Positions 19,189 through 42,487 of a stretch of 64,000 nucleotides of DNA are shown here, in pieces; position 1 is the first letter of the stretch; each line of letters starts with the position of its first letter. The notes under the pieces were generated by a model. The model was not told the DNA's origin and did not search any database. It saw nothing but the letters and a program-made list of their open reading frames with translations. The position numbers and the translations under genes were made by a program. This DNA is from Candidatus Latescibacterota bacterium (lineage in GTDB: Bacteria; Latescibacterota; UBA2968; UBA8231). The stretch spans positions 1,792,001 to 1,856,000 of the forward strand of contig CBDFJF010000001.1 of the NCBI GenBank assembly GCA_965248265.1. The letters are read 5' to 3'.

Positions 19189-19211
19189 AGCTAGCCGCTG
19201 AAACGGCAACA

Positions 19212-19250: not shown

Positions 19251-19295
19251 TATTGCATCAAACTCGCGGTCTATGCTGAACTCGCGACCGGAGAC

Positions 19296-20633
19296 TTATT
19301 GGGTGTACTGAGTGACGTTGGAAATACCGCCCGGCTGGGTCAGTGCATAGACGATCAGATTCACACCGAATTGCAACCCACGCTCGCGCGCAGTGGCGCC
19401 TGGCTGACCCCAGTACCAACTGACGTTCAGGTCGCTGAAGAGGACGGCAACGCGTCCACGTAGCTCCAGCATTTCGAGATCGAAGACGTTGCCTCCTGCA
19501 GCGCCCCCCATGGGTGGTCCGTCCTGGAAGTCAAAAAACGTGTAGTACAACGAGTGGGACTTGGGGATCTTCTGAAACTTGCCTCCCTCCGTTCCCAGCA
19601 CCATCGGATCCTTCATCAGGGCCTTGAACTGCCGATCGAACGTCGTCCCCACGACTCCTGCCTCGGTGCCGGTGAGGTTGCCCGTCGATGTGTCGTTTTG
19701 TCGAATATCTTCCGCGAACAGAAACCCGCCGCCTCGCAAATAGTCGCCCAGGTTCGTCTTCTCCGTATCACTCAGCTGCACGATCGCACTGTTGCCCGTC
19801 ATGTAGAGGAGCGGTGCTTTGTGAATGCGATCATCACTGAAGCGAAGGGTAGTGCCCTGGATCCTGGCCTTGATCTGCGTGTGATCCCTGACGTACCGCA
19901 TCAACTCTTCGACCGCGAGCGGAAAGCGATCCACGTTTTTGTCCGCCAGATCATAGTCGATGATGGTCATGTTGAAGAACCCGCGGATGTTCTTCTTGTT
20001 CTCGGGATCCGTGATGATGATCGCCTTGAAGCGACCGAAATCCAGATCCCCCACATTCAGGAGTTCGCGCTCGAGACTCAACATTTCCTGAACCGGCGCC
20101 GCCGTCTCGGTGACGTCGATCATCTCGACCCGATCGAAGTCGAGTTCGTCTGCCTTGGCTCCGCTGAAGGTCCCCAGCAGCGAAGCACCCGGCAAAACGG
20201 CACCCAGCAGGTCACTACCGACAGCGCTCACATCCGATATAGCCGTGATGTCGGTTGGCATATCGGGCGGCGTAAGGGCTGCCAGCATCTCCATCTGCAC
20301 TTCAGAGATTTCAGGCTGCTTTGCCAGATCGAAGTTCTTCTCGAGAATGGGCGGGGGCGCCTGAAACCGGATGAGCGTCTCGCCTTCCTCTTCCTCGGTC
20401 AGTCCGAAGACCAGGACGGCTACCCAAGCGACCGCGTGTACGGCCAACGACGCGACCAGGGCAGCATTCAAACCCAAACGCCTGCCGGTCGTGGCCTTCC
20501 ACAAAGCCAGAAGCAGGACCGCGAATCCACCTACGCCGGCCAGAATCGCCACCCACTTGGAGACTATGATCCCGAGATGGAGGAGGACCGCAGACCCGAA
20601 TACGATGTAGAGTATCTTTTTATGCTCTTCCAC
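19296..20633 (-). CDS. TonB-like membrane-anchored protein with C-terminal DUF4159-like domain
   Basis: Three N-terminal TM segments, the last with SLAVH (SxxxH); Pro/acidic linker; PLLYMTG...E..NLGDYLRGGGFLFAED, HSLY.TFFDF, GRVAV, FGVNLIVYALT. Confidence 0.75.
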   Translation of the reverse strand: MEEHKKILYIVFGSAVLLHLGIIVSKWVAILAGVGGFAVLLLALWKATTGRRLGLNAALVASLAVHAVAWVAVLVFGLTEEEEGETLIRFQAPPPILEKNFDLAKQPEISEVQMEMLAALTPPDMPTDITAISDVSAVGSDLLGAVLPGASLLGTFSGAKADELDFDRVEMIDVTETAAPVQEMLSLERELLNVGDLDFGRFKAIIITDPENKKNIRGFFNMTIIDYDLADKNVDRFPLAVEELMRYVRDHTQIKARIQGTTLRFSDDRIHKAPLLYMTGNSAIVQLSDTEKTNLGDYLRGGGFLFAEDIRQNDTSTGNLTGTEAGVVGTTFDRQFKALMKDPMVLGTEGGKFQKIPKSHSLYYTFFDFQDGPPMGGAAGGNVFDLEMLELRGRVAVLFSDLNVSWYWGQPGATARERGLQFGVNLIVYALTQPGGISNVTQYTQ

Positions 20634-20688
20634 AGTTAATCCTTCGCCGGTTGCTTACAGAGAGGTAACTCGGGGTTAGCCGGGCTAC

Positions 20689-21099
20689 CTATCCCCTGCC
20701 CCTATCGGGCTCTGTGGCGATTACCTGATCGACGATGCCTACCTGTCGTGCGATGTCCATGATCTGGACAATCTGCCCATGAGTGGCACGCTCGTCGCCC
20801 TGAATGATGATCAGGGTGGTGTTGTCCAATATGCCCCTTTTGTATTCCAACTCTTCCTTCAGGTTGGCAAAGGTGACCGTCTTGTGGTTCAGCTTCATGT
20901 TGCCGTCCTGGTCGACGACGATGAAGAGGTTCTCCTTGTCCGGAGCCTGGGCCTCTTCGGCCTCAGGAAGCTTGATGTCCAATCCGGGCGTAATAGCGAA
21001 AACCGCCGTCACCATGAAGAAAATCAGGAGCTGGAAAACAACGTCGATCATCGGTGTGAGATCGGGTCGCTCGTCCGGCTTCGCTTTCTGACGTTGCAT
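20689..21099 (-). CDS. exbD: ExbD/TolR family biopolymer transport protein
   Basis: DLTPMIDVVFQLLIFFMVT with the conserved Asp, IKLPEA, IQGDE...HGQIVQIMD. Confidence 0.92.
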   Translation of the reverse strand: MQRQKAKPDERPDLTPMIDVVFQLLIFFMVTAVFAITPGLDIKLPEAEEAQAPDKENLFIVVDQDGNMKLNHKTVTFANLKEELEYKRGILDNTTLIIIQGDERATHGQIVQIMDIARQVGIVDQVIATEPDRGRG

Positions 21100-21122
21100 A
21101 GCCTTTTATCTCCTGATTTGTC

Positions 21123-21770
21123 CTACTTGGCGGCTTGCCAGCGACGCAGCAACGCGTCCACGAAGCCCTGGCCGTACGGCTCGAACTGGACGGCTTTGCT
21201 CTCGGCGCGGGTCGTGAAGTAGGTGTAGATGGCGAGAGCGGGCACGGCGATCACGAGACCGGTCACGGTCGTGATCAGGGCTTCTGAGATACCGGCGGCG
21301 ACGATAGTCGGTTCACCGAGACCCTTCTCGGCGATGCCTTCAAACGCCGTGATCATGCCGTTCACCGTTCCCAGCAGTCCCAGTAGCACGACGGAGTTGG
21401 CGACGAACTGGACGACCGCTAGATAGCGCCCCAGATAGCCTATGGCGGCGCGCTCTACCGTGCCGTTCATCTCGGTGCGCATTTCCTCCAAATTGCGCTG
21501 CTCCCTGGAGAGGTGCTCGAAACGCTCGATGCCCTCAGCGTATACCTCACCTTCCAGCCTGCCGACCTCGCGACAGTAGTCCTTCAACTGGTCGAACGAG
21601 GTGCCGGAATCTATACGGCCGTTGATATCGGTGGTGACGTCCGCCAGTTCATCTTCACTGCGCATTCGGGCGTAGGTGACGACGCGTTCGAGAAAAAACC
21701 CGAAGGCCATGATCGACCACAGACTCAGGGGCCACATGAACGGGCCACCGTCTCGGAAGAATTCTAACAT
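21123..21770 (-). CDS. exbB: ExbB/TolQ/MotA family proton channel
   Basis: GGPFMWPL, LLGLLGTVNGMITAF, AAGISEALITTVTGL.IAVP. Confidence 0.92.
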   Translation of the reverse strand: MLEFFRDGGPFMWPLSLWSIMAFGFFLERVVTYARMRSEDELADVTTDINGRIDSGTSFDQLKDYCREVGRLEGEVYAEGIERFEHLSREQRNLEEMRTEMNGTVERAAIGYLGRYLAVVQFVANSVVLLGLLGTVNGMITAFEGIAEKGLGEPTIVAAGISEALITTVTGLVIAVPALAIYTYFTTRAESKAVQFEPYGQGFVDALLRRWQAAK

Positions 21771-21850
21771 TGCTCTGTTTTCCTCCCTCTAGGTTGTGAC
21801 ATTCATTTTCACTTCTTCAGATAGCTTCGTTTGGTACTCGTCTAAATCGC

Positions 21851-24800
21851 CTAAATGACTCGAGCCTCCGCCATGACTTCCAACTGCTGCTTGGCGAAGT
21901 CCACCTGTGGCGAAAACCGCGCTTCGCCGCTGTACTGGTCGACTACCTTCTGGAACTCGGCAGCCGCTTTGCGATAATCCTCCAGCGCCATGTAAGCGGC
22001 TCCGATATTCACCGCCGCATTGACCGTCTGGTCGCTGTCGGGATACTTGGTCTGGACTTCCTTGAAAATCCTAATGGCTTCTTCGAAGTCTTTCGCGTCG
22101 AACAGTTTTTCGCCTTCAGCGTAGATATTGTACGCGTCGATTTCTGACAGGTGACCCAACAGGATCGTCGCTTTGCGACGCAAACCCTTGTCTTCCGCCT
22201 TGAGGTCGGCGTCTTGGTACATGGCGAGAAACTGCTCATAGCTTTCCGTCGCCTTGTCGTAAACCTTCTCGCCGTAGTAGTAATCTCCGAGTGTGAATTG
22301 GCTTCTCGCCCCGTAGCGTCCGTCTCGATGTTCGGCTACGATCTGTTCAAAGATCGGCAGGGCGTCTTCCTTTCGATCCAGATGAATGAGTGCCCATGCT
22401 GTATTGTAGAGGGCATCGTCCACGTAATCGGATTTGGGGTAGCTGGCGATAACGGCCTCGTACTTCTTGGTGGCTTCCCTGAAAATCGGGATCTTCTGCT
22501 CGTGTGAGCGTCCGGTCGCTATGTTGAAAACGGCCTCTCCGGCGCGATACAATGACTCAGGCGCGTAATTCGAGCCCGGAAACTGTCTGACCAGTTCTTC
22601 GAACGTCTCGCTCGCTTCGCGCCATTTTCCCATGCGATAACGGGCCCAGGCGTCGTAGTAGTAGGCGTAAACGGCTTGTTCGTCGTCCGGGTACCTTTCG
22701 TAATAGGTCTGAAACGCTTCCGACAGCTTCGGCAGGTAGGCAATGCCGCCACCGCCGGAAAGCTTGTGTAATGATATACCGATCTGGAACTGCGCGTTCT
22801 TCGCCCAGCCGATCTGCGGATAGTCGTCTATGATCTTCTGGTAGGTGGCGATGGCCTGGTCCATGTCGCCAGCGCGGAAATAACTGTTGCCCTGGACGAA
22901 CAGAGCGTTTGAGATGCTCTCAACGTCGACGGCGAGATCCACCAGCCGCTGCGAGGCCTCGATGCTGCGATCGTACTGCCCGAGCCGGAAGTAGGCGCTG
23001 GCAAGACGAACAAGTACGCGCACCTTGTCTTCCTCAGCCTCGACGCGCGTCAACATTCCTTCATACGTGCGGATGGCGTCAGCTGGATCCTGCTTTTCCG
23101 CCATGGAGATGAGCTGCAGCTGAGCGTTCCTGGCGAGCGTTTCGTCGCCCGAATCTATCACCCGGTTGAGCAGCACCGTCGCCTTGGCGTCGTCTCCCTC
23201 AGCGGCATGGGAAAGCGCCATCGCGAACTCGACCTTGAGTCGCATCGCCGCAGCTATATCGGAATCCAGTAACCGCTGGTAGTCCCCAAGCGCGTTGGAG
23301 TAATACCCGGTGTAGTGATAGGCCAGACCACGTTCGTAGACCGCGTCGCGAATCGTCTCGCTTTCTGGGTAATTCTCGATGACCTTGGTGTACCCTCTTA
23401 CCGCGTCGGCGTAATTCTTGTTGTTCAGATCGAGCTTCGCGATTTGGTAATGGGCGGTAGCCTCCAAATCGCGATCGCCTTCCACGTCAACGAGCATCTG
23501 AGTCAACACACCTCTGGCTTGCTCGGGCCTGCCCGCACCGATATGAATGTTGGCAGCCTGCACCAGTGAGTGCACGTAGATCTCGCGTGCCTCCCTGCCC
23601 ACCTTGGAGAATGAATCGACCGCCTCATCCAATTGGCCCTGGTCTTTGTAGAGAATACCGAGCCAGTAATTCGCGTCCGCCGCGTACTGAGTCTCTCCGT
23701 AGTCCGTGGCTACCCGCCGATAGGCGACCAAGGCCTCGTCAACCAGCTTCTGCTCAGAATTGATCTGACCGATACGCAGCAGACACAGGGGAGCTTCGGT
23801 CGAGCGCGGGAAGTTGTCGACAACGTCATCATATAACTCCAAGGCACTATCGAAATCCTCCAATTTCTCTGCAGACTGACCGGCGCTGTAGAGGGAGGCT
23901 GCACGGAGGGCGGTTTCGCTGTCCGGATAGTTGGCGGGGACGAGCCGGTAATCCTCTCTGGCGCGCCCGTAATCACCCTCGAAGTATCGGGTCTCACCCT
24001 TCTGGTACTGAGCGTTTGGAGGGAAAGGCGTGTCGCCGTACAGTTCGATTACCTGGTTGTAGGCCGCCCACGCGTCGTCGAAACGCTTCCACGCCAGGAA
24101 GTTATCCCCCATGCGCATCTGCACCTTGGCCTTGGAGAACCGCTCCTCCGCTGTTTCCTGTGCAACGATCAGTTCCTCGTAGGCTTCCTGGTACTTCTCC
24201 TGGCCTCGATAGATCTCCGCGACACGCAGCGACGAAGTTTCGAACAATTGCATATAGCGATCGAAATCGACGTTCTTGCCCTCACGCAGTGACCCCTGAA
24301 GCAGCGACCACATGTGCTCGTAGAGATCTCGCACTTCCCGGTACATACCGATGGCATCTTGGCTGCGGCCCATCCGATCGTAAGCTTGTGCCTTGAGGTA
24401 GGTCGCTTCGCCTATGACGAAACTGCCTGGGTGCTGCTCCAACGTGGCCTCTGACTGAGCGACGGCTTTCTCGTACTCGCCTTTCTCGTAGTAGCTGCTG
24501 GCGATCCTGAACTGGGCGTCGGCAGCGTAGCGATCATCCGGGTAGTTCTCGAGGACCACAGAGAGCGATTGTATGGCTTTGTCGTATTGCTGCAGGTTGA
24601 ACTCGCTCCAACCCGCGTAGTACTGAGCCATAGCTGCATCCGACGACGTCGGAAACAAATTGACATAGTGCCGGTATTCGTTCGCAGCCTCCTGGAATTC
24701 CTTTTGTTTGAAACGTGTTTCGCCCACGCGAAGCTGGACGATGGAGCGAAAATCCTCATCCACGATGTCCATGACGGTGACTTTTTTGTATGCCTCTATC

Positions 24801-25093
24801 GCCTTCTCGTGCTGCGAGCTCTCCTTGTAGGCGTCGCCCAGCTTGTACCACGCTGCGGCAACGACGGGAAGCTCCAAGCCACTCTCGAAGTTGATGCGCA
24901 CACTGTCAGTTCGCACCGCCCGGCTGTTAAAACGGACGATCTTCGAGTACTCGATAATAGCGCCTTCATACTCGCCCAAAGCGTAAAGGGACTGCCCGGC
25001 ATCGAAGTTGGTTTTCAATGACTGGGGAACCGGCAAGAACAGGCTGGATCCCAGGCCGATACCCAGGGCGATAAGTCCGATCACGACCGCCAT
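21851..25093 (-). CDS. Large membrane-anchored TPR protein (BamD/CpoB-like repeats)
   Basis: N-terminal hydrophobic anchor followed by many helical repeats of the type A...Y..V...YP.S..A..A.Y..G. Confidence 0.88.
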   Translation of the reverse strand: MAVVIGLIALGIGLGSSLFLPVPQSLKTNFDAGQSLYALGEYEGAIIEYSKIVRFNSRAVRTDSVRINFESGLELPVVAAAWYKLGDAYKESSQHEKAIEAYKKVTVMDIVDEDFRSIVQLRVGETRFKQKEFQEAANEYRHYVNLFPTSSDAAMAQYYAGWSEFNLQQYDKAIQSLSVVLENYPDDRYAADAQFRIASSYYEKGEYEKAVAQSEATLEQHPGSFVIGEATYLKAQAYDRMGRSQDAIGMYREVRDLYEHMWSLLQGSLREGKNVDFDRYMQLFETSSLRVAEIYRGQEKYQEAYEELIVAQETAEERFSKAKVQMRMGDNFLAWKRFDDAWAAYNQVIELYGDTPFPPNAQYQKGETRYFEGDYGRAREDYRLVPANYPDSETALRAASLYSAGQSAEKLEDFDSALELYDDVVDNFPRSTEAPLCLLRIGQINSEQKLVDEALVAYRRVATDYGETQYAADANYWLGILYKDQGQLDEAVDSFSKVGREAREIYVHSLVQAANIHIGAGRPEQARGVLTQMLVDVEGDRDLEATAHYQIAKLDLNNKNYADAVRGYTKVIENYPESETIRDAVYERGLAYHYTGYYSNALGDYQRLLDSDIAAAMRLKVEFAMALSHAAEGDDAKATVLLNRVIDSGDETLARNAQLQLISMAEKQDPADAIRTYEGMLTRVEAEEDKVRVLVRLASAYFRLGQYDRSIEASQRLVDLAVDVESISNALFVQGNSYFRAGDMDQAIATYQKIIDDYPQIGWAKNAQFQIGISLHKLSGGGGIAYLPKLSEAFQTYYERYPDDEQAVYAYYYDAWARYRMGKWREASETFEELVRQFPGSNYAPESLYRAGEAVFNIATGRSHEQKIPIFREATKKYEAVIASYPKSDYVDDALYNTAWALIHLDRKEDALPIFEQIVAEHRDGRYGARSQFTLGDYYYGEKVYDKATESYEQFLAMYQDADLKAEDKGLRRKATILLGHLSEIDAYNIYAEGEKLFDAKDFEEAIRIFKEVQTKYPDSDQTVNAAVNIGAAYMALEDYRKAAAEFQKVVDQYSGEARFSPQVDFAKQQLEVMAEARVI

Positions 25094-25201
25094 ATGCTGA
25101 TCTCCTTGCTCATTCTCCTACGTACTCAACCTAACACCAGATGCCGGGCTCCGAACACCGCTTGTGCCAGCACCGGCACGGCATTCACACGGGCCTCATC
25201 G

Positions 25202-26149: not shown

Positions 26150-26174
26150 TGGCTTCCTTACCCTCCTCGTGAAC

Positions 26175-26229
26175 GCGGATCAATCGTCGATGCGGATCGC
26201 ATAGTCGATGCGGATCGATATTCGATCCG
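26175..26229. repeat. Intergenic direct repeats plus hairpin upstream of the PorV-like gene
   Basis: GTCGATGCGGATCG at 26186 and 26204, partial GCGGATC at 26175; inverted repeat CGGATCGA-TAT-TCGATCCG at 26211-26229. Confidence 0.8.
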
Positions 26230-26276
26230 ACTGATCAACCCTGCTTAAACTCGCTTGCATCTGAATTCTGAACAGC

Positions 26277-27035
26277 CTAGCGCTCGACTACAATCTCACC
26301 GTTGGCGTATTCCTTGCCGATGTCCCGGACAAACGAATAGGGAATGTCAACATCCTCGACCGGCTCATTGCGGTAGTCGAATCGCAGAACGCAATCCTGT
26401 ACCAGGACCTGGATTTTGCTGACGTCCGGATGCAACGCCTCAAAGACCACGAATCCCTCTACTTCCTGGCCACTGAAGATCTCTTCGTTCTTGAACATGG
26501 TTTGCCTAAGCAAGTCGACGCGAGCCTGGTAACGAGCGTACTCATTACCTCGATAGCCGATCGCATAGGCGCGATAATAGGTATCGAGTTGCTGAAGGTT
26601 CAAACTCCAGTATTCCCTGTCATTTTGCGCCGTCAGGACAATCTTCGCGGGATCGATTCTCACCTTGGGATAGGCGTAGTTCTTGACAGCCAAATGGAAA
26701 ACGGTAAACCGGCTTCGCTTCTTGGCGCCCTCCCAGAATTCCGTGTTGCCGTAGGTGTAAGGATTCGTCGACTTGGGGCCATTCTTTGACTGGGAAGCGA
26801 ACTGCCGGTTGAGTTCCTCATCAGTCAAAGGACGCAGCTTCACCTCGAGACGATCCTGTGTAAACGTCACACTGCCGTCATCGGCCACGGTCATGGCAGT
26901 CCCCTGATCGTCGATCGGCCTCAGAGGGGTGGAGTAGTGGTAATAGCCACATCCGTATGAACCCAAACCCACGGCGAGGGTCACTGCCAGGCGAGTTCCC
27001 CAACGGATCGTGAAATCATTCGCTTTCGTCGCCAT
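26277..27035 (-). CDS. Lipoprotein of unknown function
   Basis: Basic N-region, hydrophobic core, lipobox-like SYGC; clean 252-aa ORF within the co-oriented cluster. Confidence 0.7.
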   Translation of the reverse strand: MATKANDFTIRWGTRLAVTLAVGLGSYGCGYYHYSTPLRPIDDQGTAMTVADDGSVTFTQDRLEVKLRPLTDEELNRQFASQSKNGPKSTNPYTYGNTEFWEGAKKRSRFTVFHLAVKNYAYPKVRIDPAKIVLTAQNDREYWSLNLQQLDTYYRAYAIGYRGNEYARYQARVDLLRQTMFKNEEIFSGQEVEGFVVFEALHPDVSKIQVLVQDCVLRFDYRNEPVEDVDIPYSFVRDIGKEYANGEIVVER

Positions 27036-27141
27036 CGCTCTTGCTAGCTCCTGACTGAACCTGATTCAGTGAATTGTCGGACGCTAATATAGTACTATTG
27101 GACGTCAATATAGTGTATTTGATGGGGCAAAGGAAGCACTT

Positions 27142-28071
27142 TCACTCCCCCGCGAGGGACGCCTTGATTCGGCCCCACGAACGATCCCGCACGGCGGTTG
27201 GATCAAGGTCGGACTCCATGAGTCGCAAGTCCGAGAAACGCTCCGACAGACGGAACGAATTCTGACCTCCGGACAGTGACCACACCGCCTCAAAAATGGC
27301 CGAATGGCGGTCAAAATCGTTGAAATGCACGTTAAACCCCAGCACTTCCCCGGCCGTCAGATCGTGCCCGATGCTCTGAAACTCGGCCCCCACGTCGATC
27401 CGGTCGTAAGGCACGAGCATCATCTCATAATTGGTCGCCGTCAACCCGTTGACATCCTCTTGAAAGCTGTATGCCGCCGCGGAGAACGGTCCGTCGTGCT
27501 GGGAGTACCACTCGGCCGCCGAGAAACCCAGGAAAAAGTCCTGGTCAGGAGGCGGACCGGCAATAACGAAGTGGTTCGCCTCAGTCCCGTTTCTCCTCAG
27601 TTGCTCCGCTGCGGATAAGTCGGAGAAATCAGCGAACTGACCTCCCGAGTGATCGGCGTCGACGAACACTTCCATGTCGTCGTCCTGCCACATCAGGATC
27701 GCGGACCCTGAAGGGCGATCAATCTGGTGTATGTCGTCGAGCACCCGGGCCGCGATGTACAACCGGTTCTGGATATCGCTCCATCCGACCCACAGGCGGA
27801 CCGAAAAATCATTTTCGTCAACTTCTACTTCAGACACCAAGTCCGTAAACTGGGCAGTATCAACGGTGAACGACTCGTCGACTTCGGACCAGTCCGAGAG
27901 GTTTCCATCCACTACCGGGAGCGCACCTCGCGCGAACCCAAAGGCTGGATAGACCGTGCCGACGGGTAGATGAGCGCCGGCGATCCCGGAATACGTCAGG
28001 ACCAATGCCACGGCCGCACACGCGACGAGACCAACCTGATGTGAAAATTCTTTATGCAAAATCCGCCTCAT
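27142..28071 (-). CDS. Exported CBM9/DOMON-like protein with C-terminal SWGRIK tail
   Basis: Signal peptide; PVVDGNLSDW, NRLYIAARVLDD, W.DD.ME.FVDADHSGG, LGFNV.FND.D; ends PTAVRDRSWGRIKASLAGE. Start may be 28110. Confidence 0.72.
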   Translation of the reverse strand: MRRILHKEFSHQVGLVACAAVALVLTYSGIAGAHLPVGTVYPAFGFARGALPVVDGNLSDWSEVDESFTVDTAQFTDLVSEVEVDENDFSVRLWVGWSDIQNRLYIAARVLDDIHQIDRPSGSAILMWQDDDMEVFVDADHSGGQFADFSDLSAAEQLRRNGTEANHFVIAGPPPDQDFFLGFSAAEWYSQHDGPFSAAAYSFQEDVNGLTATNYEMMLVPYDRIDVGAEFQSIGHDLTAGEVLGFNVHFNDFDRHSAIFEAVWSLSGGQNSFRLSERFSDLRLMESDLDPTAVRDRSWGRIKASLAGE

Positions 28072-28153
28072 GTTACGAAAATAATCCCGCTCTGTCAACG
28101 AGCTTGTCATGTAGGTCTAACACTATATTTTTCAATTGCTTACAAAGCACCCG

Positions 28154-32781: not shown

Positions 32782-32797
32782 CTGTGAATTCTGAATC

Positions 32798-35593: not shown

Positions 35594-35601
35594 CTGGCAG
35601 A

Positions 35602-38600
35602 CTAGTAGACGACCGTTACGGTGCGGACGATCTGCACCTCATCGGCGTCCGTTCCCAGGCGCAGATTGAACAGGTACAGTCCCGGTGCGACCAACCGCCC
35701 ATCCTGCCGACGGCCATCCCATACATACCGCAATGCTCCGGTGGTGATCGGTCCGCCTCCCGCCTCGGTGCGAGCCCGAGCCACGAACCGTCCACTGAGA
35801 TCGTGAAAGGTGATGTGAGCTGGCCGCGGTTCCAACAGGTGGACGACCGTGAATTCGATAGCCAGCTCGTCGTTGACGTTGTCTCCGTTGGGCGAAAACA
35901 CGGAGGGCAGCTGTAACTCCTCTATGACGCCCAACTGCTCGAAGACTGTCGCCCGCGCCGTCTGGCTGTCCACCAGCTCAGTGGCATCGAGGCTCTGTAG
36001 AGGTACTCGCTGAAGAGAACGCTTGCTCTGCCGGCTGTTGCGCACAAAGGCCTGTACCGTAGAGGTCGGATCCAGGAACTTCGCCTTGAAACGAATCTCC
36101 ACCAGCGCGTGAAGGTCGGCGGCGGCCTTCGAGCCCAATACCTGGGGCAGGCTGATGACGGTTGTGTCTCCGCGTACCTGGAGGCTGAGATTTCTTCCCC
36201 GCGCATCCGTGAAATGGGGCGATTGGCTCTGGTTGGACGCAGGATCGAAGGAGGTGTCAAAGCGACTGCTTCCCAGCGGTTGGGGCGGTGCAGGCTCGTC
36301 TTGTCGCGTTGGCGCGACGGTCCCGGATCGGACCTGCACCAGCTCCGGTCGCCGCGGAACCACCAGCCAGACCTCGTCGAAACCAGCTGTTGCAGAATTG
36401 CCAGAGACCTGCCCGGCACGCAGAAAATAGGCGAACACCTGCTCTGACAGGGCGGGAATGTCGCGCGGGGATCGATAATCCTCGGTTTCGGCGCCCAGGT
36501 CACCAGGTGGCCTCGAAGTTCCTGATGGAGTCACCAATGCCAGCTCTCCGGCCAGTTCATCGGTGAGCGGGGTTGCCACCTCGACCTGGATGGAGCGCAG
36601 CCGGGCGCTGACCTGCGGATCCTCCGACTCGATCTGTGCCCGAATCTGGAGAAACCGCTGTGGCCCCCTGGAGTCGATGGTTGCCCGATTGAGATCAGAG
36701 ACCGAGCGGTATGGCTGGCTCCAGGCGCTCCACTGTGACAGCACCTGGCTGACGCTGAACTCCGCTTCGACGCGCGGATCGGACTTGCGCCGGCCGTCCT
36801 CGTCGATGAGTTGATCACCATCTTCGTCAACCCCATCGATACCGTCCTCGTCAATCAGTCCGTCGCCGTCGTCGTCACGGTCGCTGGCGTGGCGCATGAG
36901 GGTGATGGAACCACTCGCCCCCTGTGGCCCGCCACGATCATCAGTAAGGCCATCCTCGTCAATCAGTCGATCTCCGTCATCGTCGATTCCGTTTGGACCA
37001 TCCTCATCGACCAGGCCGTCGCCGTCGTCGTCACGCCCACTGCGGTGCTGCTGCAGGTTGATGGTGTGGGTCTCCGGCATCTGCAGCCAGACAGCGTAAT
37101 CGGCCTGCAGGGACCGTATGTCCTCGTACGCCGCTGAATCAATCACCGTCCTGCGCTCGCTGGAGGTGCCGGCAGCGATGATCTGATGGTAAGTGATTAC
37201 GGAATCGACTCGTGCACTGGTCCGCGTCTGCAGCCATAGCGCCACCTCAGGATGGCGGGAAATCGGTTCAGCCAGTTCGGCTGTGGCCGCGGCGTCAGCA
37301 TCCAGCGATCGCACGACAGCCTCGGCTTCCCAGACGATGTCTCCGAGTATGCGACTGGCATGCGACCCGTCGGGGTCCGCGGGGGCCATTGGGATTTCGG
37401 GAGAATAGAGCCCGATTTTGGCAGGAAAACCACTCCCGTACATCTGTATTTCATTGAAATTCGCGAAGGCATTGGAAAACCCGGACGTGCCGCCCGTCGG
37501 GTCCACATTCCGCAGTTGAAAAAAGCGCAACCGCCGCGGCGCGAAGCGTTCCCGCATCAGGCGAGCGGTGGCCGTGGTATTGTCCTTGTTGAGATCGCTG
37601 GCCAGATCTGCCCATCGTAATCCGCGTTCAAACTCGGGGTAATCCTCCAGATCCTGCAGCACCAGTGGCCGTACCGCGGTCCCGTCGGAGCCCAGCAGAT
37701 GCAATCCTTGAAGCGTGCCGACTACGTCGTTTTCTGTCGTTGGCAGGAACCCCAGAAAAATGGTGTCTATCCAGAACACGGCACCCAGATCCAGCCACAT
37801 CGTGCAACAGGCCGTGGTTGGACCACCAACCTGTTCGGAAAGCTGTGAATCCCAGGATGTGGCCAGCCAGCGGGTCAAGTAGACGCCGTCGGTCGCGGCA
37901 GCTGGCGAACCCCTCCCTCCTTCCTCGAACGCACCACCGGCACGCATGTGTGGTCTGTAGGCGACGTTGTCCCCAGGCCCCCACACTTCGATCTCAGAGA
38001 ATCGCGGTCGTTCGCGTTCGAAGTAGACGATATCTCCCTGCTCTGCCGGCGGGAGCTCGTCGTAGATCGCTGCCGCTGTCTTGATAGTACCACCGTCGGC
38101 GTCGACGGCTCGAAGCTCCGTGATCGTGCCGCCGGCAGTCACCCGTTGAAAAAGACGGCGGCCCCGGCGTGCAGACGGGAGCGCCTGGTATGCCTGCAGC
38201 CCGTCAGCCCCCTCGCCGAGCCGTGCTTTTTGATCGAAGTCACTGGAAACAATCGTGATCCGGATGAAGTGGATGAAACTGCCCTCGAGATCGGCTCGGC
38301 CATCCAGGTCCCCGTCGGCGCGATCCAGGGGATGAACTGCGAATACGTAGCGCCCGCCCCCGCCCTGACCGCGGCCACTGCCGATGGCATCGTAGCGATA
38401 GCCGCGCCCTGATGCTGTGCCGATCTGCTTGCCCATCGACGCTTCGACGGCAAACAGTTTGGGGGCATCCGATGGTGGAGTGCGTATGACGATGCTGTCC
38501 ACCCAAACCGCGCGGCCGAGGTCGATGTTGATTTGCCACCTGCTCAGATCGCCTCGATCTAAATCAGTTGAAGGCGGTTCCCAGCAGGAATCGACGTCAC

Positions 38601-38943
38601 CGTCGACGAGAAGGCCGGCCAGGTGGGCATTGGCCAGCGCCGTGATGTTGCCCCGGACACTATTGCCGCCCTGACGGACACCGTCAGCGTATTCGAACTG
38701 GCCCATGTCCGTCGTATAATTGCGCTTTCGCGCCTGGAAACGAGGGGCGATGCCGCCTGAATCGAGGTGAAATAGGCGAGTGGAATCGATAGCGGCCGCT
38801 CGCTGCTCGACGATGTCGTTTTGATAAATCCAATTGCGCCAGTGCTCGACGCCACGCACCACGATCCCGTCAGCCGTGTGCTGGTATGCCTCACCGTAAG
38901 CGCCGGCGCTCAAAGCAGTCACGACGAGCAGGAGGATGGCCAT
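35602..38943 (-). CDS. Large exported protein with DxDxDG repeats and FlgD-Ig/T9SS-like C-terminal domain (paralog 2)
   Basis: Signal peptide; discoidin-like segments (IDLGR, WLDLGAVFWID); acidic repeats; C-terminus PSVFSPNGDNVND...HDLSGR...WDGRRQDGRLVAPGLYLF. Confidence 0.8.
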   Translation of the reverse strand: MAILLLVVTALSAGAYGEAYQHTADGIVVRGVEHWRNWIYQNDIVEQRAAAIDSTRLFHLDSGGIAPRFQARKRNYTTDMGQFEYADGVRQGGNSVRGNITALANAHLAGLLVDGDVDSCWEPPSTDLDRGDLSRWQINIDLGRAVWVDSIVIRTPPSDAPKLFAVEASMGKQIGTASGRGYRYDAIGSGRGQGGGGRYVFAVHPLDRADGDLDGRADLEGSFIHFIRITIVSSDFDQKARLGEGADGLQAYQALPSARRGRRLFQRVTAGGTITELRAVDADGGTIKTAAAIYDELPPAEQGDIVYFERERPRFSEIEVWGPGDNVAYRPHMRAGGAFEEGGRGSPAAATDGVYLTRWLATSWDSQLSEQVGGPTTACCTMWLDLGAVFWIDTIFLGFLPTTENDVVGTLQGLHLLGSDGTAVRPLVLQDLEDYPEFERGLRWADLASDLNKDNTTATARLMRERFAPRRLRFFQLRNVDPTGGTSGFSNAFANFNEIQMYGSGFPAKIGLYSPEIPMAPADPDGSHASRILGDIVWEAEAVVRSLDADAAATAELAEPISRHPEVALWLQTRTSARVDSVITYHQIIAAGTSSERRTVIDSAAYEDIRSLQADYAVWLQMPETHTINLQQHRSGRDDDGDGLVDEDGPNGIDDDGDRLIDEDGLTDDRGGPQGASGSITLMRHASDRDDDGDGLIDEDGIDGVDEDGDQLIDEDGRRKSDPRVEAEFSVSQVLSQWSAWSQPYRSVSDLNRATIDSRGPQRFLQIRAQIESEDPQVSARLRSIQVEVATPLTDELAGELALVTPSGTSRPPGDLGAETEDYRSPRDIPALSEQVFAYFLRAGQVSGNSATAGFDEVWLVVPRRPELVQVRSGTVAPTRQDEPAPPQPLGSSRFDTSFDPASNQSQSPHFTDARGRNLSLQVRGDTTVISLPQVLGSKAAADLHALVEIRFKAKFLDPTSTVQAFVRNSRQSKRSLQRVPLQSLDATELVDSQTARATVFEQLGVIEELQLPSVFSPNGDNVNDELAIEFTVVHLLEPRPAHITFHDLSGRFVARARTEAGGGPITTGALRYVWDGRRQDGRLVAPGLYLFNLRLGTDADEVQIVRTVTVVY

Positions 38944-41519
38944 CAGTAAGCCAACGCCACGTGCCGTGCGATCCTGAAGTCAGCCGCGTCCGTCCGCACT
39001 CGCAGCTGCAGCAGATAGATTCCAGGAGGCACGAGGTCTCCCTGGTCATCCTTGCCATCCCATCCATCGGCGACTTCACCCGGAGGGACCCGCCGCTGCC
39101 ACCCGCGCAGGCGGCGGCCGGACAGATCGAAGATTCCGGCCTCGACGTCCACTTCCCGCAAAACGCGAAGCAGGTCGTAGCCGATGTGAACGCGGTCATT
39201 GATGCCGTCACCATTGGGTGTGAAAGGATTCGGTTGCAGGGTCACCCGCGCCACGAGGTCCCCCACAGGGGCATGGGCGGCCGTGATCGCACTCAGACTG
39301 TTGCGGTCGCGCCGGTCGGCGCCGAAATCGATCGCATTACCGGCACGCACCCGCTGCGGCAGGATCCTTGTCTCGCTACCAACGACAACGATATCTCCAT
39401 AGGACCTCTCCAGACTCGGGTCCAGCGTATCGAGAAAGGCCTGACTCTCGAAGAACGTGGTGGTGCCCAGCACGCGGGTGCGAAAATGGATGAGTAGCCG
39501 TGTATCCTCGGTTGATGCCCGGGTGATCGCCGGCAACTCGGGTATGGCTACGACAAAGAAACCAGGCTCTACAGTCGCCGTGTCGAAGCTCAGCGGTCGC
39601 GTGGACACACCTTCTTCATCCAGCTCCAGAACCAGCTCTACTCCGCGCACCTGGCTGAACGCAGGGGTACCAACACGAATTCTGTTCACTCCTGCATCCT
39701 CAACCTCAGCATGCAGCTGCAGGGCGTAGGTGAACAGCGTATCCACCGCAGGATTGATGCCGGCAGCTGGCACTACCTCTGCCTGGAGCCGGGAGACAAC
39801 CGGGGGCACCACAAGCTCGAAGTGGAGGTTTTCCACGATTGTGGCAGCATCGGGATCGCTGCTGGTGAAATCGACTCGCAGCTGAAAGAATGGGCGCCCT
39901 CCCCGTGCGCTGATTACCTGGCCGTTAGTGAGAGGCTGGAACGGACTCCACCAAACAGGGTCTCGTACCCGCGGCAAAGCCGATCCATTGCGCTCGCGTC
40001 GGGCAGCCGGCAATTGCATGTACTCGGCGAAGGTAGTCTGGGCTCCGGCGCGCACTTCGGCTGGCAAGACCTCCCAGACGGCGCGCGATCCCGTCCGCAA
40101 CAGTGGATCATCGAGCCAAACGGACGTGCCTTCGGTAGGACTGCCGTCGCGGTGATCGATCACCTGGGTATCGGCCCGCCACTCGACAGCATCCCCGTTG
40201 CCGTTCACCCGGAACAGCAGCAATGGTTCCGGTGTCGTTCCGGTGCGCATACTTATGGAAGCACTCGAGTGAGCCGGGTCCCCGATCGTGCGCTCGTCCC
40301 AAAACACGCGCCCTAGTGTGGCCCCCGGCAAGGCGTCGAGTTGGGCGCGGCGCGCGCGATTGCCCGCCTGATATTCGAGCATGGCTGACGCGGCCTCGCT
40401 CTGAAAGGGCAGCGCCCGCGTGACATAGGTGGCCTGAGGAACAAAGCCGCGTCCGAAAACCTCGAGCTCAGCGACGTCGAAATCGAGCGCAGTCAGTGAC
40501 TTGAACTGCAGAAAGCGCAGGTATTGCGGGGGGTCGAGCGCGATGGCTACGGTGTCGGCATCGTTGCCACGCTCGATCCTTAGCATGTCGTACAACGGAA
40601 CCCCTTTTTGCGCCAGGGCTTCGTCACCCAACAGTTCGTAGGCGGCATTGTTGACTGGCGACAGCGTTCCCGTGAGTGTGGGCTTGAGGTTGATTCCATC
40701 ATTGATCTCAATGCTGTACCCACTGATCGCAAGAGGGAGGTCTCGCGGACGCGGGTAAAAGCGCACCAAGCCCACCGGAAAACGCGACACCAGGTCCATG
40801 CGAATGACAACACTGCGTTTTTCTACGACTCGATTGGGGGCGTCTTCACGAACAAACGCCGTGCTCGCGTCGACGTCGATGAGATGCTCCAGGTTGCTGC
40901 GCAGTTGCTGATCGTTGAGCTGCGTTTCGTACTGTGTCGGCGACCACAGCAGAGACTCAAAGCGGAACTGCGGATTGCGTGGCCACAAAACGGCGTGCGC
41001 CAGATTGACCATCGTCCGCACACTGTCGACGCCGGCGCCAGTGAACAACCGGATGCCTGCCAGTGACCGCGGCAGATCCGCTCCCGCCTCCAGCAACACC
41101 TGTCCTGCGTGTGCCAGGGTGTCGCCATCCACGATGAAATCCCGTTGCGCGATCACATGGTCTCGAGCAATGTGTCCGGTAAAGCGGCTCAGGCGATCGA
41201 GCTCTTGGGGGCTGAGCTCATCGATCGCCGCAGCTGTGGACAGGATGGGGACTTCTATGACTACCGTCGTGTCCAGCGGTGCGATGCCGCTGGCGGAAAG
41301 CGCGTAATCAATCTCAGGGAAGTAATTGCCTGGTGAGAAAGGAGGTTGCTGAGCCTCCTCCCAACCGATGTCGCCCGGAATCGAGAACTGGATCACCGAG
41401 GATTGCGCCATCACTGCCGTGACGCTGAGGGCGGCGTACAGGTGCAAGGACAGCGTTCGCCGGACGATCCGGACGATGTCGTGAAGGAGGATCGATGTTC
41501 GATGGTTGCACATCGACAT
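38943..41519 (-). CDS. Large exported protein with FlgD-Ig/T9SS-like C-terminal domain (paralog 1)
   Basis: Signal peptide; ELEVFGRGF; C-terminus PNPFTPNGDGIND...FDLSGRRLR...WDGKDDQGDLVPPGIYL. Stop overlaps the next start (TGATG). Confidence 0.8.
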   Translation of the reverse strand: MSMCNHRTSILLHDIVRIVRRTLSLHLYAALSVTAVMAQSSVIQFSIPGDIGWEEAQQPPFSPGNYFPEIDYALSASGIAPLDTTVVIEVPILSTAAAIDELSPQELDRLSRFTGHIARDHVIAQRDFIVDGDTLAHAGQVLLEAGADLPRSLAGIRLFTGAGVDSVRTMVNLAHAVLWPRNPQFRFESLLWSPTQYETQLNDQQLRSNLEHLIDVDASTAFVREDAPNRVVEKRSVVIRMDLVSRFPVGLVRFYPRPRDLPLAISGYSIEINDGINLKPTLTGTLSPVNNAAYELLGDEALAQKGVPLYDMLRIERGNDADTVAIALDPPQYLRFLQFKSLTALDFDVAELEVFGRGFVPQATYVTRALPFQSEAASAMLEYQAGNRARRAQLDALPGATLGRVFWDERTIGDPAHSSASISMRTGTTPEPLLLFRVNGNGDAVEWRADTQVIDHRDGSPTEGTSVWLDDPLLRTGSRAVWEVLPAEVRAGAQTTFAEYMQLPAARRERNGSALPRVRDPVWWSPFQPLTNGQVISARGGRPFFQLRVDFTSSDPDAATIVENLHFELVVPPVVSRLQAEVVPAAGINPAVDTLFTYALQLHAEVEDAGVNRIRVGTPAFSQVRGVELVLELDEEGVSTRPLSFDTATVEPGFFVVAIPELPAITRASTEDTRLLIHFRTRVLGTTTFFESQAFLDTLDPSLERSYGDIVVVGSETRILPQRVRAGNAIDFGADRRDRNSLSAITAAHAPVGDLVARVTLQPNPFTPNGDGINDRVHIGYDLLRVLREVDVEAGIFDLSGRRLRGWQRRVPPGEVADGWDGKDDQGDLVPPGIYLLQLRVRTDAADFRIARHVALAY

Positions 41520-41542
41520 CGACGGCCGTCGTCGAACCCTGC

Positions 41543-42487
41543 CTAGTCGGCGAAGCTCGCTTTGATACGCCCCCAGGAGTTGCTCTCAACTGCCGTGATA
41601 GGAGATGCGGCCGCACCGCAGTCACCGGTGTTGCAGGAAATCAACTCGCCGTCGACAAAATTGTCGGCCTCCCTCCACGTCAGTGGTTGTCCTGATAACG
41701 TGTGGTACCCGTGGAACAAGAACAGGTCATCACAGGCGAAACAACCAGCGTCGAAGTCTGGGATCGACACCTGGAACCCGAGGATCTTGCCGGCGACCAA
41801 TTCCGTGCGCCTGCTGCGCTCCGGTCCACGCCAGTCCAACTCGTCCCAGGGGGTGATGAACATTTCGATCACGGACGTGTTGGGTGATTCCTGATTGTCG
41901 GTAAAACCGCCGGCATTGGAAAAAGGTGGGGCGATTGCCCAGGTCGCGGCGCCTCCGTATCCCAGGGTGTTGTTGTCGGGAGATACGGCGATGGCGAAGT
42001 ATTGCTGGGCTTGAAAACCAGACAGCAACTTCGCTTCTTCAGCTCCGAAGCCGTCCTCTTCGAGGTATCGGTTGTACTTGCCCCCGGTATGATCGCCATC
42101 TACCATGAATTCGATACTGTCATACTGCCACACGTTGCCCAGATCCCCACCTTCGTAGGTATTGACGTAGACGTCATCCACGCGCTCTATGGCCACGTAT
42201 AGATGGTTGCCGGCGCTGTGCCAGGCCATGAACACGCGATAGGCCAGGTCGGCCGTGTCGATACCGGCCCCGTCGTTGACATTCAGAGGTGCAAACTGGT
42301 CCTGATTCAGCGAAAACGTAGGCAAGACCTCTACCCAATCATCGAGGCTGCCATCGTGAATATCGGGTAACTCATCCGTCGATAGTTCGAATATCGGGAA
42401 TGGTTGTCCTCCACCCACGTGCGCTGACGCAGCTTGACTAATGATAACGAGCACAACTATGCAACTCGGGACTGTGAGGCGCGTCAT
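41543..42487 (-). CDS. Exported CBM9/DOMON-like protein with C-terminal SWGRIK tail
   Basis: GAGGAGGAG RBS; signal peptide; LPDIHDGSLDDW, WQYDSIEFMVDGDHTGG; ends ITAVESNSWGRIKASFAD. Paralog of 27142-28071. Confidence 0.75.
   Translation of the reverse strand: MTRLTVPSCIVVLVIISQAASAHVGGGQPFPIFELSTDELPDIHDGSLDDWVEVLPTFSLNQDQFAPLNVNDGAGIDTADLAYRVFMAWHSAGNHLYVAIERVDDVYVNTYEGGDLGNVWQYDSIEFMVDGDHTGGKYNRYLEEDGFGAEEAKLLSGFQAQQYFAIAVSPDNNTLGYGGAATWAIAPPFSNAGGFTDNQESPNTSVIEMFITPWDELDWRGPERSRRTELVAGKILGFQVSIPDFDAGCFACDDLFLFHGYHTLSGQPLTWREADNFVDGELISCNTGDCGAAASPITAVESNSWGRIKASFAD

Follow-up and report, generated by a model that had tools for sequence, protein, structure and literature searches.

A conserved ExbB/ExbD-DUF4159 module linked to a family of large outer-membrane barrels in Candidatus Latescibacterota, a possible machine for surface display

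The motors of the Bacteroidota type IX secretion system (T9SS) and of ExbBD systems belong, in principle, to the same 5:2-type class of proton motors. The Agl-Glt machinery, as described in PMC11761067, couples a TolQR-type motor to the TonB-like proteins GltG and GltJ, a ~1200-residue TPR protein (GltD), and outer-membrane barrels. In the type-B branch of the T9SS, represented by SprB-SprF and PG1035-PorP-PorE, proteins with CHU_C-type C-terminal domains (CTDs) bind PorP-like barrels encoded alongside, according to PMC9143113; in the account given by PMC4793230, a complete T9SS is reported only from Bacteroidetes. Oar-dependent PopC secretion, as presented in PMC6434023, provides a precedent for a Ton-dependent barrel that is needed in protein export.

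Here we describe a locus from a Candidatus Latescibacterota bacterium that shares parts with each of these systems. The window, a 64,000-nt stretch of assembly GCA_965248265.1 (contig CBDFJF010000001.1, positions 1,792,001–1,856,000 of the forward strand), contains 13 consecutive minus-strand ORFs at 19296–42523, separated by no more than 127 nt (Table 1). The ORF list confirms the gene order and the stop/start overlaps given in a preliminary description of this DNA, of 1 nt at 38943 and of 4 nt at 31066–31069, and corrects its upstream boundary, 42487, which is an internal start of g01. The terminator proposed at the 3’ end is likewise borne out by a strong hairpin and T-rich tail just past g13, at about 19210–19250, though a consensus terminator scan did not list this hairpin. 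The 13 co-directional envelope genes are two linked units. Genes g01–g06 are one of ~13 paralogous cassettes within the genome, and encode a CBM9-like protein, CTD-tagged discoidin proteins, a 931-residue outer-membrane barrel, and a SurA-like peptidyl-prolyl isomerase (PPIase). Genes g07–g13 form a core that encodes, in order, a CBM9-like protein, a lipoprotein, a PorV-family barrel, a 1080-residue TPR protein, ExbB, ExbD, and a TonB-like DUF4159 protein. Genes outside the window were called with a crude longest-ORF script.

Table 1. Genes and terminator of the locus, in window coordinates.
Feature	Coordinates	Strand	Basis
g01, CBM9-like secreted protein, 326 aa, C-terminal tag ...TAVE..SWGRIK	41543..42523	-	29-30% identity to g07; tail motif
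g02, 858-aa secreted protein with T9SS-type CTD	38943..41519	-	CHU_C 21.3 bits, below cut-off 27
g03, 1113 aa, discoidin (F5/8 type C)-like domain, acidic Asp-rich repeats and CTD	35602..38943	-	sub-cut-off domain matches
g04, 931-aa predicted outer-membrane beta-barrel, unnamed family	32798..35593	-	predicted structure
g05, SurA-like periplasmic chaperone, two parvulin PPIase domains, probable lipoprotein, start codon uncertain	31066..32865	-	Pfam
g06, 971 aa, Asp-rich repeats and CTD	28154..31069	-	CHU_C 25.4, FlgD_ig 23.9 bits, below cut-off
g07, CBM9-like, 322 aa, SWGRIK tail, first gene of conserved core	27142..28110	-	CBM9_1 26.3 bits
g08, 252-aa lipoprotein, beta-sandwich with helical insert	26277..27035	-	conserved lipobox Cys; model
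g09, PorV/PorQ-family outer-membrane barrel, 315 aa	25202..26149	-	NF033709 80.2 bits, below cut-off 90
g10, 1080-aa TPR protein, hydrophobic N-terminus, presumed periplasmic scaffold	21851..25093	-	TPR families; TIGR02795
g11, ExbB/TolQ-type proton channel	21123..21770	-	PF01618 83.2 bits
g12, ExbD/TolR	20689..21099	-	PF02472 99.9 bits
g13, inner-membrane protein: TonB-like helix (S-x3-H), proline motif after helix, linker, C-terminal DUF4159	19296..20633	-	PF13709
Intrinsic terminator 3’ of g13	19205..19255	-	hairpin -37.5 kcal/mol, z -7.8, then T-rich tail

The g13 protein is a new type of partner for ExbB and ExbD. DUF4159 (98.2 bits against a cut-off of 25.9, profile positions 5–202 of 202) is the sole Pfam domain found in it, and its earlier designation as TonB-like holds for the membrane helix and proline stretch (11 of the 13 orthologues aligned retain the His of S-x3-H, and F..PPPIL.K.F is invariant) but not for the C-terminus, where TonB_C is lacking. 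The genome encodes six DUF4159 genes, and a full-text literature search for the function of this domain yields the Pfam paper only. As in ExbB-ExbD-TonB systems, ExbB and ExbD family proteins accompany a partner with the characteristic helix and proline stretch, together with a link to large outer-membrane barrels; unlike them, neither TonB_C in g13 nor Plug or TonB_dep_Rec in the barrel is found. A canonical TPR-ExbB-ExbD-ExbD-TonB locus lies separately at C2:704660–708144, the genome’s PF03544 (TonB_C) matches are at C2:707911 and C2:3106289, away from this locus, and ~30 plug-bearing TonB-dependent receptors are encoded in the genome. The ExbBD of this locus is thus not the ordinary TonB system, and ordinary TonB-dependent import, the use that the preliminary description had weighed against its own proposal, has a dedicated gene set elsewhere.

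Domain scores also suggest a resemblance to Tol-Pal. The tolQ model outscores exbB for g11 (77.6 vs 49.9 bits, neither reaching its equivalog cut-off), tolR outscores exbD for g12 (67.2 vs 49.2 bits, the exbD equivalog cut-off being missed), and g10 matches the YbgF model TIGR02795 in 11 YbgF/CpoB-like stretches (318 bits). Genes g10–g13 could therefore encode a YbgF-repeat protein, TolQ, TolR, and a TolA-like protein that maintain the envelope, with the surface genes adjacent only through shared envelope regulation. This reading would accommodate the genome’s lack of any TolB over the cut-off (top score 140 bits vs 343, PD40 repeats only) and the 65–95% identity of g13 orthologues within the family, as is often seen for housekeeping genes. 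We consider it improbable, however. The canonical set at C2:705947–708144 is likewise favoured by the Tol models, and this preference therefore does not discriminate; the block has no TolB or Pal gene and no TolA domain; g13 is wholly absent from three families with near-complete genomes; and neither the tight phyletic and physical link to the barrel family nor the duplication of the entire system as a paralogue, both described below, would be expected for Tol-Pal.

The lipobox Cys of g08 is kept in at least 90% of 14 aligned sequences, and the folds nearest to its model (pLDDT 84) are YjhA (E 6.8e-4) and MPT63. The g09 protein, earlier called PorV/PorP-like, matches the PorV/PorQ family over its full length (E 2e-22), although at 80.2 bits it stays below the cut-off of 90; a gene-precise copy (99.56%) is present on the other contig. 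The g10 protein additionally has a sub-cut-off match to PorW/SprE (115 bits vs 250).

SWGRIK forms the C-terminal end of both CBM9-like proteins, of which only g07 exceeds the CBM9_1 cut-off of 23.4; g01 has no match in a Pfam profile search. The g05 protein matches Rotamase_2 (76.4 bits), Rotamase (51.8 bits), and SurA_N_3 (18.4 bits). All three CTDs in the window are below the Pfam cut-off of 27 (CHU_C 21–25 bits, FlgD_ig 17–24 bits); g03 scores 24.9 bits for CHU_C, 20.2 for F5_F8_type_C_2, and 16.7 for FlgD_ig, each below its cut-off, and g02 has weak matches to the PorU C-terminal region and to TIGR04131. Paralogues elsewhere in the genome pass the cut-offs, reaching 41.5 bits for CHU_C and 48.2 for FlgD_ig; the g02 family has 33 members in the genome. 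A g06-like gene is present in 18 of 35 related loci. Within the genome, a CTD gene lies no more than 2.1 kb from each of 13 close barrel paralogues, and 26 of the 33 CTD genes, 9 of 13 CBM9-like genes, and 7 of 8 PPIase genes are located within 10 kb of a barrel gene. Among 49 cassette neighbour proteins scanned, some are PMT_2 (GT-C)+TPR proteins, and none is a glycoside hydrolase or a peptidase. Sugar-acid and transport genes are found near some cassettes. At the level of sequence, the PorV-family barrel in the core, the CHU_C type-B CTD matches, and the GT-C proteins unaccompanied by degradative enzymes hint at CTD handling and at the biogenesis of surface proteins.

A large new family is that of g04, which has no match in Pfam, NCBIfam, or PDB sequences, and whose 929 homologues are all unnamed. 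The earlier view of g04 as a large barrel-like protein is supported by its AlphaFold model (pLDDT 66.7, pTM 0.66, a middling confidence), which predicts a large transmembrane outer-membrane beta-barrel of about 24–26 long strands. The protein also has a conserved N-terminal region at approximately residues 40–160, a beta-domain inserted into it, and a region of acidic loops. Structure comparisons return generic large barrels: SlpA (E 4e-8), MtrB, LptD, and FimD, with TM values of only 0.13–0.24, and FhaC/TamA/BamA at Z 13–14. The family comprises ~19 ORFs in this genome, and there are dozens of first-look candidates in relatives. SusC/D pairs are likewise expanded in Bacteroidota.

In the main rival of the explanation we prefer, the 931-residue barrels are new energized outer-membrane transporters in an arrangement similar to a PUL. 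CTD-anchored discoidin and CBM9-like proteins would capture a polymer, and ExbBD, acting through the DUF4159 protein as a dedicated TonB analogue, would open the barrel by pulling on its N-terminal region. Import is classically energized by ExbB/ExbD together with a TonB-like anchor, the barrel family is expanded, discoidin and CBM9 are carbohydrate-type binding modules, and the sugar-acid and transport genes mentioned above would be in keeping with uptake. Furthermore, the conserved ~120-residue N-terminal stretch of g04 is left unfolded in the model, so it could form a plug and thereby serve import. Several observations argue in the other direction, and we regard gated import as possible though doubtful. 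A Pfam profile search of g04 finds neither Plug nor TonB_dep_Rec, and g13 lacks TonB_C; ~30 canonical receptors and their TonB set are already encoded in the genome; the cassettes contain chaperones and GT-C glycosyltransferases, with 0 degradative enzymes among the 49 proteins scanned; and one of the core proteins is a barrel of the PorV family, which is known for handling CTDs.

Comparisons across the phylum show that the core is conserved and that it is linked to the barrel family. Across 78 public-genome loci, the proposed block recurs upstream of DUF4159, with ExbD in 66/72, ExbB in 66/69, TPR in 46/49, and the PorV-like barrel in 35/41 loci; the g08 lipoprotein is present in 26/37, and a CBM9-like gene upstream of the core in 26/36. 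In a sample of 101 genomes, the DUF4159 protein occurs in 57 and the 931-residue barrel family in 59: 56 genomes have both, three the barrel only, one DUF4159 only, and 41 neither. Both are absent from all sampled genomes of families f2 (0/26), f3 (0/9), and f7 (0/5), a pattern that reflects few independent losses, as f2 and f3 belong to the same class as f1 while f7 is separate. The barrel cassette adjoins the core in only 4 of 35 loci of family f1. In family f8, a single row reads lipoprotein-CTD-CTD-CTD-barrel-TPR-ExbB-ExbD-DUF4159 (L031; also L083, L086, and L105), and in four of ten loci fetched from family f9 the order is barrel-TPR-DUF5683-156aa-ExbB-ExbD-ExbD-DUF4159-lipoprotein. This second, paralogous type of system (type 2) also occurs in our genome, at C2:1.322–1.347 Mb, where it includes three barrels and two CTD genes. 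Thus, co-occurrence, operon fusion in distant families, and this second system link the 931-residue barrel family to the DUF4159 protein, and the earlier supposition of a link between cargo cassettes and motor is supported.

The genome also encodes type IX components outside the window, as a genome-wide search for sprA, gldKLMN, porU, and porV revealed. SprA is represented by a 2075-residue ORF at C1:390954–397181 (TIGR04189, 586 bits), PorU by three genes (626–655 bits, cut-off 420), and PorV by a PorV_fam match of 251 bits adjoining one of the PorU genes. The locus is therefore not a self-contained alternative to the T9SS. The canonical PorLM motor and ring, already missed in the window, are not detected in the genome searches either: GldL (TIGR03513) and GldN have no match, in Bacteroidota-trained models of unproven reach here that match no control genome. 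The sole GldM (TIGR03517) candidate, at 20 bits, is a chemoreceptor coiled coil, the control genomes also being without a match, and the GldK candidates are 23 partial matches of FGE-sulfatase type (best 92.5 bits vs a cut-off of 350). In the phylum sample, 95 of 101 genomes have SprA over its cut-off, and 0 of 101 have GldM over that of a Bacteroidota-trained model; GldM_1st (PF12081) is found in 0 of 26, with two controls matching below the cut-off.

This distribution invites a strong form of the proposal in the preliminary description, namely that ExbBD-DUF4159 replaces PorLM/GldLM as the general type IX motor of the lineage and drives SprA-dependent export. The combination of widespread SprA with missing GldL, GldM, and GldN would be explained, the block carries a PorV-family barrel and a TPR protein with a sub-cut-off PorW/SprE score, and the restriction of complete systems to Bacteroidetes in PMC4793230 is compatible with a different motor elsewhere. 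The phyletic pattern speaks against it. SprA is present in all 40 sampled genomes of f2, f3, and f7 (26/26, 9/9, and 5/5), none of which has the module, so the module is not a general replacement for PorLM; it co-varies with the 931-residue barrels and not with SprA. In addition, the GldL/M/N models are trained on Bacteroidota and silent in control genomes, such that their reach in Latescibacterota is unproven. We therefore give a general type IX motor little credence. Relative to the type-B branch, the likeness lies in CHU_C-type cargo encoded beside a cognate barrel, the PorV-family barrel and TPR protein, and the SprA and PorU genes; the differences lie in a motor of ExbB/ExbD with a TonB-like partner, in a cognate barrel of at least 900 residues that is not PorP/SprF, and in the absence of the module from SprA-bearing sister families.

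Agl-Glt of Myxococcus, and with it Nfs, offers a similar parts list. According to PMC11761067, these systems likewise combine a TolQ/ExbB-type proton motor, inner-membrane TonB-like transducers, and a TPR pillar of more than 1000 residues with outer-membrane porin-like barrels, lipoproteins, and a surface adhesin. In the type-2 system, the g08 homologue ends in an AgmX/PglI-type, TonB_C-like domain of the kind seen in GltJ and GltG (NF033768, 64 bits vs a cut-off of 40); its score with the GltG model is 41 bits (E 7e-11, cut-off 650). However, there is no sequence-level orthology past generic domains, the transducer here ends in DUF4159, no GltG/GltJ-type TonB-like protein is present in the window, the barrels are of a different and much larger family, the surface proteins have T9SS-type CTDs, no cytoplasmic platform was noticed, and the phylum is another one. 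It is conceivable that the machine moves large CTD adhesins along the cell surface, as in Agl-Glt or as with SprB in Flavobacterium; the parts list, the type-2 lipoprotein, and the abundance of adhesin-like proteins with their individual cognate barrels would suit such gliding-type motility. We think this very unlikely, as the cytoplasmic part of g13 is short, and it overlaps with, and by sequence is inseparable from, the explanation we prefer.

That preferred explanation, held tentatively and at somewhat less than an even chance, is a proton-driven, Agl-Glt/Ton-like trans-envelope machine that serves the barrel/CTD cassettes for surface display. What the data show is which genes are present, that they are conserved, and that the barrel family and the motor module are linked; topology, contacts, and direction of action we infer as follows. 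In this Latescibacterota-specific machine, powered by the proton motive force, ExbB/ExbD would be the inner-membrane stator, g13 the transducer, with DUF4159 at its outer end in place of the TonB C-terminal domain, and g10 the periplasmic scaffold; the outer-membrane partners would be the PorV-family barrel, the beta-sandwich lipoprotein, and the 931-residue family barrels. Many cassettes encode these barrels next to large discoidin-domain proteins bearing T9SS type-B-like CTDs, along with CBM9-like proteins and SurA-like chaperones; GT-C glycosyltransferases are often present as well. Passage of the CTD proteins across the outer membrane most likely relies on the SprA/PorV/PorU apparatus, whose genes lie elsewhere, and the proteins may then be held by the cognate barrel, by analogy with SprB and SprF. 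The ExbBD-DUF4159-TPR module would couple membrane energy to the barrel complexes, so that the surface proteins are assembled, exposed, or moved. A stronger form, which seems to us rather unlikely, is that the module constitutes a second, ExbBD-powered branch of CTD-protein display, in which a new class of DUF4159-ending TonB-like transducer passes proton-motive energy by way of a giant TPR scaffold to a new family of 24–26-strand barrels, which secrete or anchor type-B-like CTD adhesins.

The locus represents an undescribed envelope system that is conserved in a phylum both widespread and uncultured. It introduces a new type of ExbB/ExbD partner, a TonB-like anchor joined to DUF4159, and a large new outer-membrane barrel family that is nameless in every library searched. 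The co-occurrence and fusion data provide concrete protein pairs for co-expression and structural work, and the contrast between SprA (95/101) and GldM (0/101) sharpens the question of what, if anything, powers type IX secretion outside Bacteroidota. If ExbBD-powered display proves true, a Ton-type motor would have the role for these cargoes that GldLM plays in Bacteroidota, and may hint at the energy source of the T9SS in the many SprA-bearing lineages without detectable GldLM.

The window contains 13 minus-strand ORFs in unbroken series, g01 to g13 in the direction of transcription, separated by no more than 127 nt, with overlaps of 1 nt at 38943 and 4 nt at 31066-31069. Downstream of g13, a hairpin (-37.5 kcal/mol, z -7.8) runs into a T-rich tail; a consensus terminator scan did not pick it up. 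The ORF, domain and hairpin calls thus confirm, with corrections, the co-directional block with overlaps and a terminator put forward in the preliminary description. By eye, a signal-like or membrane segment can be recognised at the N-terminus of each of the 13 proteins, and metabolic genes flank the block. The locus comprises two units, g01-g06 and g07-g13.

Features of the locus and of related loci. Window domain calls are from Pfam and NCBIfam profile searches; G000 is the genome containing the window, C2 one of its contigs, and L numbers are loci compared
Feature	Position (strand)	Assignment
g01-g13	19296-42523 (-)	Gene block
g01	tag 41543-41590	No family match; 29-30% identity to g07
g02, g03, g06		Large proteins; final ~90 residues resemble CHU_C (21-25 bits) and FlgD_ig (17-24 bits), both short of the 27-bit thresholds; in g03, an additional weak match to discoidin
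g04		931 aa; no match
g05		Two parvulin domains; weak SurA N-terminal match
g07	tag 27142-27190	CBM9_1, 26.3 bits, above cut-off
g08		No match
g09	copied region 25202-26115	PorV/PorQ family, full-length match, 80 bits against a cut-off of 90
g10		TPR, 1080 aa; 11 YbgF-like stretches
g11		ExbB/TolQ
g12		ExbD/TolR
g13		DUF4159; no TonB_C domain
Further tag	48390-48944 (-)	
Reg_prop beta-propeller protein	42645-44060 (+)	Divergent, upstream of the operon
FGE-sulfatase-domain protein	44620-45789 (+)	Divergent, upstream of the operon; GldK fold family, although 76 bits against a GldK cut-off of 350
FapA protein	54531-57485 (+)	984 aa; FapA beta-solenoid, repeated FapA N-terminal region (4 stretches)
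g09 copy	G000:C2:3315414-3316327	99.56% identity; between cytidylate-kinase-like and M20 peptidase genes
Second system	G000:C2:1.322-1.347 Mb	Paralogous module
TonB locus	G000:C2:704660-708144	Canonical TPR-ExbB-ExbD-ExbD-TonB
TPR-TonB fusion	G000:C2:3103628-3106630	1000-aa TPR protein, terminal TonB_C domain (30 bits); outside the described systems
GldM match, rejected	G000:C2:3057065	20 bits; chemoreceptor coiled coil
PMT_2+TPR and DUF6785/DUF6784 proteins, examples	L114:7792-9987(-), L117:14103-16121(-), L118:14854-16932(-), L114:16391-18346(+), L115:1544-3529(-), L120:2049-3992(-)	Recurrent in G000 cassettes

The paralogue counts, the clustering of neighbours and their Pfam content identify g01-g06 as one copy of a repeated cassette. 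Longest-ORF calls made beyond the window with our own script place 13 close paralogues of g04 (38-45% identity) in the same genome, besides some six more distant ones, and a gene with a T9SS-type C-terminal domain (CTD) lies within 2.1 kb of every close paralogue. A barrel gene lies no more than 10 kb from 26 of 33 CTD-family, 9 of 13 CBM9-like and 7 of 8 SurA-like ORFs. When 49 cassette neighbours are scanned against Pfam, discoidin domains and CHU_C/FlgD_ig CTDs above cut-off are identified, together with recurrent FG-GAP/ASPIC proteins, PMT_2 (GT-C glycosyltransferase)+TPR proteins of 650-730 aa and DUF6785/DUF6784 membrane proteins of ~650 aa; no glycoside hydrolase or peptidase is identified among these neighbours. 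The SusC/D families are expanded in Bacteroidota. A PPIase co-purifies with SprA, as does PorV or a plug protein, and the PPIase GldI is required for gliding.

The AlphaFold model of g04 (pLDDT 66.7, pTM 0.66) has ~24-26 long strands, running antiparallel, with a beta-domain inserted and an acidic loop region; the N-terminal ~120 residues are conserved and have no resolved fold in the model. Foldseek and VIA matches are confined to large or generic outer-membrane barrels (SlpA, MtrB, LptD, FimD, FhaC, TamA, BamA) with poor superposition, and SprA is not among the matches listed for this model of 929 residues and middling confidence. The barrel profile has no match among PDB sequences at E values up to 1, and in the ESM Atlas g04 falls with unnamed clusters, the nearest named one being DUF6029 at 0.89, a lead only.

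Both g01 and g07 end in SWGRIK, part of a C-terminal tag of the approximate form TAVE..[ST]WG.[IVL]K that is followed by up to ~20 residues, mostly fewer than 10. Of 6895 called ORFs, 38, mostly encoding small secreted proteins of 180-450 aa, have the tag within the final 25 residues, and the core motif occurs elsewhere in only 11 proteins. The tag looks like a sorting signal.

The second unit, g07-g13, is a single-copy, conserved core. Among 78 public-genome loci, counting for each gene only those with sufficient upstream DNA, the DUF4159 gene is preceded by ExbD in 66/72, ExbB in 66/69, TPR in 46/49, the PorV-like barrel in 35/41, the lipoprotein in 26/37 and the CBM9-like gene in 26/36, so that the porV-TPR-exbB-exbD-DUF4159 order singled out in the preliminary description is kept. 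The core is adjoined by a barrel gene in only 4 of 35 loci and by a CTD gene in 18. In three loci (L071, L075, L111) the ExbB that precedes the DUF4159 gene has an identity of only 27-39% and no ExbD is matched, which suggests that the stator was swapped in some lineages. DUF4159 transducer-like genes also occur in tandem, with four consecutive in L123 (G012:C200), and genome G001 has 16 matches. The homologues of g04 and g13 are encoded by MAGs of Latescibacterota, a part of them labelled Gemmatimonadota in NCBI.

Within the core, g13 carries S-x3-H on the helix nearest the periplasm, with the His retained in 11 of 13 aligned orthologues, followed by an invariant F..PPPIL.K.F motif; in distant orthologues this helix is the only one. 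The predicted model of g08 is a lipoprotein beta-sandwich with YjhA and MPT63 as closest folds. The coding region of g09 alone, without its surroundings, recurs on contig C2, and this copy may be a recent gene-precise duplicate or an assembly or binning artefact.

Three lines of comparison connect the barrels with the DUF4159 module. First, the g13-type protein (E <= 1e-20) and the 931 family of g04 were profiled across 101 sampled Latescibacterota genomes in 13 families. Counts for the two are identical in f1 (29/29), f2 (0/26), f3 (0/9), f4 (1/1), f5 (2/2), f6 (1/1), f7 (0/5), f8 (5/6), f9 (12/13), f11 (1/1) and f12 (3/3); f10 has g13-type in 2/3 and 931 family in 3/3, and f13 has 0/1 and 1/1. 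Per genome, 56 have both, three the barrel only, one DUF4159 only and 41 neither, these genomes being related and hence not independent. The pattern implies at least two separate losses. Second, the small genomes of f8 contain a single operon, lipoprotein-CTDx3-barrel-TPR-ExbB-ExbD-DUF4159 (L031; also L083, L086 and L105). The PorV-family barrel of f1 occupies the position held in f8 by the 931-aa barrel, which suggests that both may bind CTDs. Third, the second paralogous system in the genome studied encodes two ExbD and two CTD proteins, three distant barrels, a beta-propeller, a TPR protein of 1082 aa, DUF5683, a protein of 156 aa and a DUF4159 protein of 384 aa that shares the TonB-like helix. 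After these come a beta-helix protein and a g08 homologue that ends in a TonB_C-like domain of the AgmX/PglI (GltJ/GltG) type (64 bits, cut-off 40); a DUF6785 gene also lies downstream of this system. In f9 this type forms a compact operon, barrel-TPR-DUF5683-156aa-ExbB-ExbD-ExbD-DUF4159-lipoprotein, in 4 of 10 loci, the other six being short contigs with DUF4159 genes only. These comparisons demonstrate a conserved module of barrel(s), giant TPR, ExbB/ExbD, TonB-like DUF4159 protein and lipoprotein, in two paralogous types, and its linkage to cassettes of CTD-tagged discoidin proteins.

The preliminary description had envisaged a possible T9SS variant with ExbBD replacing PorLM. A self-contained alternative to the T9SS is not supported by the remainder of the genome (7.3 Mb, 2 contigs, 92% complete, 4.4% contamination), which encodes SprA (586 bits, a 2075-aa ORF outside the window), three PorU (626-655 bits) and PorV (251 bits) adjoining one PorU gene, together with nine or more PorV/PorQ-family genes and dozens of ORFs with a CTD. 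The genome-wide check for gldKLMN that it proposed finds no GldL or GldN with models that exceeded their cut-offs in no control genome, a GldM match that was rejected, and nothing for GldK beyond partial FGE-sulfatase-type matches. Of the 101 genomes sampled from the phylum, 95 have SprA above cut-off and none has GldM above it, with a model that likewise exceeded its cut-off in no control and whose reach outside Bacteroidota is unproven; none of 26 genomes of the family yields GldM_1st, again with no control over cut-off. The conserved motor module tied to CTD cassettes stands. Its role as a general T9SS motor does not, since the SprA-bearing families f2, f3 and f7 are without it. Excerpts of Abby et al. 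(PMC4793230) report complete T9SS in Bacteroidetes only, and excerpts of a Fibrobacter proteome study (PMC6851124) handle T9SS and TonB/ExbBD as separate systems. Searches of non-subscription literature found no paper linking Latescibacteria with type IX secretion or T9SS, and nothing on DUF4159 beyond the Pfam paper.

The DUF4159 module is not an ordinary TonB system. The genome has a canonical TonB locus and about 30 plug-bearing receptors, and no TolB reaches cut-off. Energised import through the barrels is the main rival explanation and appears rather unlikely. The best reading, held tentatively, is that CTD proteins would be exported by SprA/PorV/PorU and held by cognate barrels, as PorP/SprF hold type-B CTD proteins (PMC9143113, in part), and that the ExbBD-DUF4159-TPR module would couple proton-motive force to the barrel-CTD complexes. 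The architecture of the ExbBD-DUF4159-TPR-barrel module parallels that of Agl-Glt, as described in part of PMC11761067. The locus is best read as one form of the trans-envelope machines powered by ExbBD/TolQR, with coupling to type IX-type cargo.
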